Program-made: the position numbers and the translations under genes | The notes under the pieces: generated by a model | Told to the model about the DNA's origin: nothing | Database searches by the model: none | What the model saw: the letters and a program-made list of their open reading frames with translations, nothing else | Shown: positions 7,791-9,426 of the stretch, piece after piece | Numbering within the stretch: position 1 is the stretch's first letter | Layout: each line of letters opens with the position of its first letter | IMG/VR virus record: IMGVR_UViG_2703718780_000024 | Span: 1 to 22,914 of that record | DNA: 22,914 bases | Origin: a virus | Taxonomy: Duplodnaviria > Heunggongvirae > Uroviricota > Caudoviricetes | Direction: 5' to 3' (one strand)

Positions 7791-8210
7791 TTAAGAGGCT
7801 TTTTGTTTTTTCTTTCGTGCTAACTCTTCGTAAATTGCATTGTACTTCTGTTTTTTCTCCTCAAGAGTTTTTAAAAGTTCATCTGTCTCACTGTCAGGGA
7901 GCTCGTCCAGAAGGTCAATGATGATTTTTTGTCTTGGATTTAACTCCTGATAGAAACGTATCTGTCCACTTTCTTCTGTATCCTCTCCCAAAAGATAGGT
8001 TGGTGTTGTTCCAATGAGTGTTGCTAATTCCCTTAATTTCTCTCGGCGAGGAATTGTTTCACCATTAAACCATTTGCTAACCGCTTTTGGTGTTAATTTC
8101 ATTCGACGGGCAATTTCTGCCTGCCTTCCATGTTGTTCATAACCAGCGTTTTCACAGGCTAGCGCAAGCCTACTGGCGAACTCTTTACGCGCTTTATCTT
8201 CATGAACCAT
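7791..8210 (-). CDS. Prophage repressor, XRE-family HTH (RacR/CI-like), 139 aa
   Basis: HTH segment QAEIARRMKLTPKAVSKWFNGETIP. The gene is divergent from a Cro-like gene and flanked by operator-like repeats. Confidence 0.8.
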   Translation of the reverse strand: MVHEDKARKEFASRLALACENAGYEQHGRQAEIARRMKLTPKAVSKWFNGETIPRREKLRELATLIGTTPTYLLGEDTEESGQIRFYQELNPRQKIIIDLLDELPDSETDELLKTLEEKKQKYNAIYEELARKKKQKAS

Positions 8211-8230
8211 AAGTTCAATGATATTCGCTC

Positions 8231-8266
8231 TTGAATGTACTGTCAGTTCTGTTATAGCATGTACTC
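8231..8266. promoter_or_regulatory. Divergent promoter/operator region between the repressor and Cro-like genes
   Basis: ATGTACT occurs at 8235-8241 and 8259-8265 in the 79-bp intergenic region. TTGAAT (8231-8236) and TATAGC (8253-8258) are candidate -35/-10 elements for rightward transcription. Confidence 0.4.
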
Positions 8267-8289
8267 AAAGTTCACATTGTGAGGGTGAT

Positions 8290-8544
8290 ATGAACCAGAA
8301 AACACTTGAAGATGTAATCAAAACTGTTCGCGTTTCTGTTGTGGCCGACGTTTGTGGTGTCAGCCAAAGAGCAATCTACAAATGGATGGATAACGGTAAA
8401 TTGCCTCGCACAGAATATACCGGCGAAACAAATTACGCTGAAAAAATCGCTCATGCATCAAACGGATTATTTTCTGCCGATGCAATTTTAACTATTGGCA
8501 GAAATAAAACTACTACGAAAAAGCTGATGGGAGTTGATTCATGA
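8290..8544 (+). CDS. Cro/YdaS-like HTH regulator, 84 aa from the internal ATG
   Basis: HTH-like segment VADVCGVSQRAIYKWMDNGKLP. GAGGG precedes ATG 8290. The stop overlaps the next gene start (ATGA). Confidence 0.7.
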   Translation: MNQKTLEDVIKTVRVSVVADVCGVSQRAIYKWMDNGKLPRTEYTGETNYAEKIAHASNGLFSADAILTIGRNKTTTKKLMGVDS

Positions 8545-8963
8545 AAATCAAGCATGAGCACATCGAATCAGTGTTGTTAGCCCTGGCAGCCGAAAAAGGG
8601 CAGGCGTGGGTCGCTAACGCAATTACTGAAGAATATCTGCGCCAGGGGGGCGGCGAATTGCCCCTGGTACCAGGCAAGGACTGGAACAATCAGCAGAATA
8701 TCTATCATCGTTGGTTGAAAGGTGAAACGAATGCGCAAAGGGAAAAAATTCAGAAACTGATCCCTGCGGTTCTGGCAATTCTTCCTCGCGAGCTGCGTCA
8801 CCGACTCTGCATCTTCGATACCCTGGAACGCCGTGCATTACTGGCGGCACAGGATGCACTGAGTACGGCAATTGATGCGCATGATGATGCAGTCCAGGCC
8901 GTTTACCGTAAAGCACATTTCAGCGGCGGCGGTTCTCCTAGCGATTCTGTCGTAGTGCATTGA
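8541..8963 (+). CDS. ydaT: YdaT-like protein (CII-position regulator/toxin-like), 140 aa
   Basis: It is translationally coupled to the Cro-like gene. The 140-aa length and position match Rac YdaT. Confidence 0.6.
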   Translation: MKIKHEHIESVLLALAAEKGQAWVANAITEEYLRQGGGELPLVPGKDWNNQQNIYHRWLKGETNAQREKIQKLIPAVLAILPRELRHRLCIFDTLERRALLAAQDALSTAIDAHDDAVQAVYRKAHFSGGGSPSDSVVVH

Positions 8964-9007
8964 TTGAAATTAATCGTACCGAACTGTTTTGTTCGGTATC
9001 AGTTAAA

Positions 9008-9426
9008 TGTAACGCTGCGAGCGTTACAAGGTGAAAACAAATGGCTTCAAACTGGATAAAGCTCGAAGTTATTACGCCGGATAAGCCGGAAATATTCAGG
9101 CTTGCTGAGATTCTGAATATTGATCCAGATGCCGCATTAGGGAAAGTCATTCGCTTCTGGGCATGGGCGGATCAACAAATGATAGACGGTAACGCAGAGT
9201 GTAACGCTCGCGGCGTTACAAAAAGTGCAATAGATCGCATCACTTTTATGGCTGGTTTTGCTGATGCGTTAATTCAGGTTGGATGGCTGGTCGAAACTAA
9301 TGGTGTGTTGTCGCTTCCTAACTTTGAGCGCCATAACGGGAAAAGCTCTAAAAAACGGGCGGTTACAAACGAGAGAGTAACAAAAATACGAGAACTGAAA
9401 CGAAAAGGTAACGCTGCCAGCGTTAC
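9008..9426. repeat. Iteron-like palindromic repeats (GTAACGC ... GCGTTAC), candidate replication origin or operator sites
   Basis: Three inverted repeats at 9008-9028, 9200-9220 and 9408-9426, plus degenerate half-sites at 9189-9195 and 9360-9367. One lies just upstream of the O-like gene and two lie inside it. Confidence 0.5.

Follow-up and report, generated by a model that had tools for sequence, protein, structure and literature searches.

In phage lambda the replication origin (ori) lies within the gene for the initiator, O, in the segment that codes for its linker. There, four tandem, dyad-symmetric iterons of ~19 base pairs (bp) recur with a period of ~20-24 bp and are followed by a polypurine tract, AAAAGAAAAAAGAAAAGA within an AT-rich stretch, and then by a palindrome; the gene for the helicase loader, P, lies immediately downstream. 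The classical lambdoid arrangement of O and ori is modular, with the N-terminal domain and the boxes acting as an exchangeable specificity module and the C-terminal domain tied to the loader. The Rep proteins of iteron plasmids (pPS10 RepA, F RepE, R6K pi) bind as dimers to inverted-repeat operators and as monomers to direct iterons, and in the basal unwinding system of bacterial oriC a DnaA box is adjacent to the DnaA-trio repeats. Here we analyze a related arrangement in a stretch of 22,914 nucleotides (nt) of the virus record IMGVR_UViG_2703718780_000024 (hereafter the window), a Rac-like Escherichia coli prophage in which three copies of one palindrome lie in and just upstream of a gene for a putative initiator of 262 amino acids (aa; 9041-9829, plus strand). 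An earlier inspection of the letters alone (the original prediction) had taken them for iteron-like repeats of an O-like gene, serving either as autoregulatory operators or as a dispersed origin. We estimate at roughly 0.75 the probability that the palindromes are recognition boxes of the phage's own initiator and form, together with the sequence 3' of the third copy, an in-gene replication origin. Between the two options the origin is the better supported, because the third palindrome is fused to a lambda-like succession of half-site, polypurine tract, AT block and C-rich motif; the upstream copy may still have an operator role.

The likeness to lambda comprises a linker-coding location, dyad boxes of ~19 bp, the same order of elements, a specificity module that seems to be exchanged as a unit, and a loader gene immediately downstream. 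The differences are equally clear. There is no detectable protein homology to lambda O (no Pfam Phage_rep_O match; hhalign probability 0.9%), so that the name 'O-like' suits the gene by function and gene order only. The loader is DnaC-like and not lambda P, one box lies within the region coding for the DNA-binding domain, and the tandem array of lambda is replaced by single boxes ~190-260 bp apart accompanied by lone half-sites. This unusual spacing had been pointed out before and is the rule in the family, as two boxes 22-25 bp apart (≤1 mismatch) were found in only 3 of 129 loci. From the iteron plasmid Reps the system differs by the lack of a match to Rep_3 or any other Pfam family, by sites that lie within the gene and not in a separate array, and by the lack of a promoter over the upstream palindrome; a switch between dimers and monomers in the window's initiator would be pure analogy.

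Palindromes and half-sites at the replication locus

The palindrome GTAACGC-N5-GCGTTAC occurs at 9009-9027 (site 1), 9201-9219 (site 2) and 9408-9426 (site 3), with no further copy in the window: a pattern search allowing up to two mismatches returned exactly these three matches, each with none. Shuffled sequences contained 0.07 copies on average and three copies in 0 of 100 shuffles, and the inverted repeats GTAACGC(T)...(A)GCGTTAC reported earlier are thus real and exact. The 7-mer alone occurs 12 times in the window against 2.3 expected, and eight of the 12 occurrences fall within 9009-9449; since palindromes and 7-mers cluster there, the consensus is restricted to the replication locus within the prophage segment.

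With their flanking bases, site 1 is a perfect palindrome, TGTAACGCT-GCG-AGCGTTACA, at 9008-9028 (from the sequence and the pattern scan), site 2 is TGTAACGC-TCGCG-GCGTTACA at 9200-9220 inside the initiator open reading frame (ORF), and site 3 is GGTAACGCTG-C-CAGCGTTACA at 9407-9427, at the start of the segment that codes for a disordered linker; no strand is assigned to any of the three. The coordinates given in the original prediction are those of sites 1 and 2, while site 3 with its flanking bases spans 9407-9427 and not 9408-9426. As predicted, one copy is in the leader and two are in the gene, and the spacing of ~190-210 bp corresponds to start-to-start distances of 192 and 207 bp. Site 1 occupies the 77-bp gap between the stop of a ydaT-like gene (8963) and the initiator ATG (9041), and ends at the Shine-Dalgarno sequence AAGGTG.

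Two lone half-sites accompany the palindromes. The first, GGTAACGCA (9188-9196, plus strand; exact GTAACGC at 9189-9195), stands 12 bp before the left arm of site 2 and falls in a 4-codon insertion characteristic of a '+161' subgroup of homologs. The second, terminal one, AGCGTTACC (9442-9450, minus strand; exact GCGTTAC at 9443-9449), lies 23 bp past the right arm of site 3, encodes A-L-P and directly abuts a polypurine tract. The half-site spacings are 12, 12, 12 and 23 bp, i.e. one or two helical turns. Of the degenerate half-sites suggested earlier, these exact ones stood, and those in 9361-9381 did not: the 5-mer matches at 9361-9367 and 9377-9381 were discarded as being without codon-level conservation in relatives.

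Sites 2 and 3 share one frame of the ORF 9041-9829 and, as had been seen before, encode the similar peptides NARGVTK and NAASVTK. The DNA repeats could therefore be a by-product of a repeated peptide, NAxxVTK, or else arise by chance. This we regard as hardly credible: site 1 is non-coding, the shuffles never reproduced the pattern, the silent positions are fixed (p = 3.9e-6, see below), and the peptides belong to loop and linker segments for which disorder is predicted.

Conservation and co-variation of the boxes

Scanning of genome, viral and metagenome collections yielded ~170 loci with the same N-terminal domain. The palindrome scan defined a set of 129 non-identical N-terminal sequences with boxes of the window's type (class A; the count of loci with a purine run is 121), and 47 representatives with <85% nucleotide identity to each other and GC content of 40-62% were used for a codon alignment. 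Hosts of class A comprise Enterobacteria (Pantoea, Pectobacterium), Xanthomonadales, Coralloluteibacterium and Planctomycetota (Stieleria, Roseiconus), in addition to metagenomes; the proteins are 50-72% identical and the GC content ranges from 40 to 62%. Exactly two in-gene palindromes (≤1 mismatch) are present in 121 of the 129 homologs, at about +149 or +161 and about +338 to +413, so the repeats, whose absence from homologous replication genes was to speak against the original prediction, are kept across phyla. The counterpart of site 2 is found at +149 or +161 in essentially all of them. A counterpart of site 1 is present in 51 of the 129 loci, at a fixed offset of -31 to -43 from the ATG.

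This distribution is relevant to the alternative that the boxes are autoregulatory operators only, by which the initiator would repress or roadblock its own operon while the origin lies elsewhere. Plasmid Rep proteins do use inverted repeats as operators, site 1 where present holds its fixed position just 5' of the ribosome-binding site, and the boxes within the ORF could serve as roadblocks. However, the universally kept boxes are the in-gene ones and the upstream one is dispensable, and a promoter scan of 9008-9028 revealed no sigma-70-like promoter overlapping site 1. Besides, the polypurine/AT/C-run layout at site 3, which is under nucleotide-level selection, would be superfluous for an operator, and the same tract is found behind unrelated repeats in ydaU of E. 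coli K-12. A purely regulatory role of the boxes is therefore unlikely. Site 1 itself is accessory, being present in 51 of 129 loci, and may act either as a third anchoring box or as an autoregulatory operator or roadblock.

The arms of the class-A palindromes are invariant over the 129 genes, while the central N5 is free to vary. Among the 47 representatives the codon choice in the half-sites is near-fixed (GGT 0.98, AAC 1.00, GTT 0.98 and 0.84), and the leucine of 'ALP' in the terminal half-site is always TTA (1.00). The mean share of the top codon is 0.87 in the half-site columns vs 0.52 in 43 other columns of equal amino-acid conservation (Mann-Whitney p = 3.9e-6). Such frozen silent positions indicate selection on the nucleotide sequence itself. 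As far as can be judged from sequence comparison, it is shown that the locus carries DNA elements that are selected as nucleotide sequence and that travel and co-vary with the N-terminal domain.

Distant members of the initiator family (29-35% identity) exhibit the same architecture with different arms, all their sites being 19-20 bp long. Class A (121-129 non-identical loci, including the window) has GTAACGC-N5-GCGTTAC at the positions given above and the terminal half-site GCGTTACC. Class B, comprising 78 ε15- and PSA-2T-like loci, has GTCCGC-N7-GCGGAC at about +66 and +345 to +378, the terminal half-site GCGGACC, and an additional direct half-site GTCCGCA 11-12 nt upstream of the linker palindrome. 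Class C, from the Ralstonia phage Raharianne, has GTAGACG-N6-CGTCTAC at +154 and +369 and the terminal half-site GCGACTACC. The same polypurine junction follows the boxes in all three classes. Co-variation is seen also within class A: of the 14 genomes with the terminal half-site CCGTTACC, 13 carry the corresponding C-to-G change in the palindromes as well, and of the 93 with GCGTTACC, the palindromes are all-C in 89, counts that ignore phylogeny. A concerted change of several sites per genome, unpaired half-sites included, is the pattern that the binding sites of a co-evolving protein would leave.

The same data bear on the question whether the palindromes are sites in duplex DNA at all, or rather hairpins in messenger RNA or single-stranded DNA, with a role in translation control, RNA stability or priming. 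Folded as a single strand, each of them is stable (-8.9 to -10.3 kcal/mol, z-scores -2.6 to -5.8), the arms stay complementary from one subfamily to the next by changing in concert, and a hairpin at site 1 would stand just 5' of the Shine-Dalgarno sequence. Against this, the arms show neither G-U nor compensatory variants over the 129 genes, in contrast to a freely variable loop, the symmetry of some palindromes is broken at arm position 7, and no Rfam family matched at E ≤ 1 in 8800-9700 on either strand. Furthermore, the lone half-sites, which have no pairing partner, are conserved and co-vary with the arms, which is more than a pure hairpin function would need. We consider hairpins very improbable as the basis of the conservation.

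If the palindromes are protein-binding sites, as we prefer to think, the protein could still be another one, either a host factor or a neighboring regulator of the YdaT/cII-like or Cro-like type, and DNA-binding regulators are indeed encoded immediately upstream. Yet among the 47 diverse loci only the initiator gene is universal; the runner-up among real genes, a repressor, is present in 9, and no neighboring gene in more. The hosts span several phyla, and the sequence of the box follows the initiator subfamily. Binding by a different protein thus seems quite improbable, and the concerted change of the sites, together with the lack of any other common gene, makes the initiator's own N-terminal domain the simplest candidate binder. 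YdaT of CP-933P recognizes TTGATT-N6-AATCAA (PMC9986795); YdaT was rejected as the box binder, as this operator is unrelated to the boxes.

The stretch upstream of site 1 contains two further elements. The segment TTGATT-GAAATT-AATCGT at 8960-8977, which overlaps the ydaT-like stop, matches the published YdaT operator (PMC9986795) in 10 of 12 positions, and may represent a site for YdaT shortly before the replication gene. Between that stop and site 1, at 8977-8998, there is a perfect 8-bp stem-loop, TACCGAAC-TGTTTT-GTTCGGTA, which scored as terminator-like on the minus strand; in two Shigella and E. coli relatives (L002 and L003) its left arm is CCGGA, and with G-U pairing the stem survives only in the plus-strand RNA.

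The segment downstream of site 3 and its counterpart in K-12 ydaU

Immediately 3' of the terminal half-site lies an all-purine tract of 21 nt, AGAGGAAGAGAAAGAGGAAGA (9451-9471, plus strand), a putative unwinding or helicase-entry element, followed by an AT block, TATAAATACTTATCT (9472-9486, no strand assigned), and a C-run motif, CCCCCTAAATCCCCC (9487-9501, plus strand). The core of the origin is probably 9442-9501, just beyond the range 9008-9426 of the original prediction, which holds all three palindromes. Alignment of the relatives on site 3 reveals a fixed order of palindrome, lone half-site ending in ACC, polypurine tract, AT block and, often, C-run; in some relatives a second palindrome is found 23 bp beyond that of site 3. 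The polypurine tract immediately adjoins the half-site and consists of (AGAGA)n in most relatives and of (GAGGAA)n in enterobacterial members, the AT block is TATAAA-like, and the C-run motif has the form C4-7 N3-5 C4-7, sometimes with a G run after it.

Purine runs of 12 nt or more are present in the linkers of 203 out of 210 unique loci (median 23, range 12-41); the run is followed by an A/T run of at least 5 in 163 of the 203 and by the C-run motif in 87. Codon usage is strongly biased: arginine within the purine tract is encoded by AGA in 331 of 336 cases (vs 13% AGA in the N-domain), and proline in the C-run motif by CCC in 194 of 296 (vs 19%). The region from the polypurine tract to the C-run has no significant single-strand fold (z = 0.04). 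Over its 12-41 nt the tract often consists of perfectly repeated pentamers or hexamers and in this respect is microsatellite-like; slippage in it may alter the length of the linker and the geometry of the origin. It also recalls the oriC DnaA-trio, as an initiator box abuts short-period repeats, (AGAGA)n or (GAGGAA)n, that are possibly read as single-stranded DNA, although the protein, the repeat unit and the sequence all differ.

The closest comparison is provided by the Rac prophage of E. coli K-12, with the gene order ydaS, ydaT, initiator (ydaU), ydaV, ydaW, as in the window. We take the ydaU/ydaV locus of Rac to be the one credited with oriJ. BLASTP aligns YdaU with the window's initiator over residues 139-262 only (124 residues, 79% identity), and the DUF1376 N-domain of YdaU has no detectable similarity to that of the window (hhalign probability 0.2%). 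At the DNA level the two genes share the purine/A-rich tract and the motif CCCCC(CC)TAAATCCCCC, the A/purine-rich stretch of ydaU with its C-run equivalent CCCCCCCTAAATCCCCCCCGGGGG being homologous to 9470-9501 of the window. The GTAACGC palindromes are replaced in ydaU by repeats of CAGATGTTCAAACA, five direct copies 12-33 bp apart and one inverted (L174:2250-2356), in the same linker position just before the shared purine/C-run segment; these repeats could serve as the boxes of an origin in K-12 Rac. Since YdaU shares the tract and the C-terminal domain but neither the N-domain nor the boxes, a recombination joint must lie between boxes and tract. The DNA-binding domain and the boxes thus appear to be one module, and the tract and the C-terminal domain another.

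Several observations weigh against the assignment of an origin to this segment. Only one full box and one half-site adjoin the putative unwinding tract, where classical origins have more. The encoded peptides NAxxVT, ALPE, EKRREEK and PPLNPP are likewise conserved; some of the constraint may thus act on the protein, and replication slippage could keep perfect (AGAGA)n repeats uniform. We found no description in the literature of these boxes, of the tract, or of a ydaU or ε15 origin. Finally, K-12 Rac, which shares the tract, has been described as replication-defective after excision (PMC11879457), in conflict with another description of it as having an active oriJ (PMC3945230).

The initiator family and a candidate mechanism

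The window is 100% identical to complete E. coli chromosomes, including those of O157:H7 and O111:H8 strains, and its replication module (8200-10600) has 97.8% nucleotide identity to the deposited phages vB_EcoS-666R9, vB_EcoS-673R7 and vB_EcoS-613R10. At least 80% of the query 8950-9850 is present in 679 of 5426 complete E. coli genomes (~1 in 8), and the initiator family has members in named phages including ε15, TL-2011b and CP2. Upstream of the initiator gene are encoded a repressor (7791-8210, minus strand), a Cro/YdaS-like protein (8218-8544) and a YdaT/cII-like protein (8541-8963), and downstream a DnaC-like helicase loader of the ydaV type (9836-10582, plus strand), the presumed partner of the initiator's C-terminal domain, and a DUF1627/YdaW protein (10554-11366). 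In ε15 (L175:342-1511) and several relatives a gene for a cytosine-5 DNA methyltransferase overlaps the first 11 nt of the initiator gene with its end.

Searches of Pfam and NCBIfam assigned no domain to the initiator (Phage_rep_O, Rep_3 and DUF1376, residues 1-140, were unmatched), a profile search of PDB sequences returned nothing for its N-domain, and its database relatives are nearly all labeled 'hypothetical protein'. PHROG 2509, annotated 'replication initiation protein', matches residues 1-262 with E = 3.2e-88. The AlphaFold model has a mean confidence (pLDDT) of 66, with block means of 73-88 in the folded parts. It comprises a predicted N-domain (approximately residues 10-95) with helices at 16-25, 29-48, 61-68 and 73-80 and a β hairpin at 84-91, a disordered linker at 121-160, and a three-helix C-terminal domain at 176-225, after which comes a DnaT-like tail. 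The low-confidence loop 48-57 between helices of the N-domain is exactly what site 2 encodes, and the linker is encoded by site 3, the purine tract and the C-run motif. According to the model, the DNA signals would thus be placed where the protein tolerates them.

The tail of the initiator, RQINTVSFPDSAIPPGFRG, resembles that of the primosomal protein DnaT, RDVNTVSEPDSQIPPGFRG (profile E = 0.13 and a weak NCBIfam match), with …PDSxIPPGFRG in common. Encoded at 9770-9826, its end, …NTVSFPDSAIPPGFRG, is close to the C-terminal tail of host DnaT (2ru8, 6aep, 9zbt). This likeness hints at mimicry of a DnaT contact, and together with the adjacent DnaC-like gene it suggests a hand-off to DnaB-DnaC. 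C-terminal domains differ widely among the loci. Many E. coli and Salmonella homologs (P0011-P0058) have 374-380 aa, of which only the N-terminal 57-65% of the query is common, at 86-99% identity; in these, the C-terminal domain attached to the shared DNA-binding domain and boxes is a different and longer one. In E. coli QML220614 (H35, NZ_CP132061.1) only the first 311 nt of the query (8950-9260) match, at 99.4%; the match covers site 1, site 2 and the first ~73 codons and adjoins a gene of the DUF977 family, which places a mosaic joint inside the N-terminal domain. In the relatives L002 and L003 mentioned above (Shigella flexneri SFBU1023 and E. coli ECMA0423, 1501-2133) the initiator is shortened to 210 aa, with an altered C-terminus, …EQGDTGTGKIPSAGFYT before the stop, apparently by a frameshift, and none of the three palindromes is damaged. 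In plasmid databases the initiator was found in just two records, a 41-kb 'plasmid' of Pusillimonas sp. T7-7 (L261, NC_015459.1) and CP088505.1 (L260), which resemble circular episomal phage genomes with genes for CII, NinB, Rha and a DnaC-like ATPase, or for a Mu-like transposase; the two records contain nothing decisive on replicon function.

Taken as an initiator acting at its own boxes, the protein could work as follows. Dimers of the N-terminal domain would occupy the 19-bp dyad boxes of sites 2 and 3, and of site 1 where it is present, while further protomers, aligned along one side of the double helix, would bind the lone half-sites at a distance of one or two turns (12 or 23 bp). Looping or wrapping of the DNA would bring together boxes separated by ~190-260 bp. 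The last half-site, 9442-9450, would position the complex at the polypurine/AT tract 9451-9486, which would then open. The C-terminal domain with its DnaT-like tail would bring in host DnaB via the adjacent DnaC-like loader, as gene order and the tail motif suggest.

An in-gene origin with co-evolving boxes is an already known principle. The initiator family with its box consensus, and the dispersed layout of two boxes plus half-sites, appear from our literature searches to be undescribed, as do the constancy of the (AGAGA)n junction across phyla and its reuse with an unrelated DNA-binding domain. A more far-reaching and rather doubtful proposal is that the terminal half-site, the tract of (AGAGA)n or (GAGGAA)n, the AT block, the C-run and the DnaT-like C-terminal domain make up a portable, cross-phylum origin core, which occurs with four or more box specificities and with one or more DNA-binding domains of unrelated type (DUF1376 of K-12 YdaU). 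During opening, its purine repeat would be recognized by sequence in the single-stranded state, like a DnaA-trio of phages, and would not merely melt easily or code for a charged linker.

Our analysis provides a likely function and a concrete box consensus for a widespread, essentially unannotated family of initiators without a Pfam domain. The family offers a clean case of overlapping codes, in which, across a very wide range of hosts, a DNA signal fixes the silent positions of sequence that codes for loops and linkers. It also represents a natural experiment on origin specificity, with exchanges of box classes and DNA-binding domains against a constant tract and loader-recruiting domain. Possible uses include the annotation of phage origins, the prediction of incompatibility or cross-activation between co-resident prophages, and the construction of orthogonal replicons.

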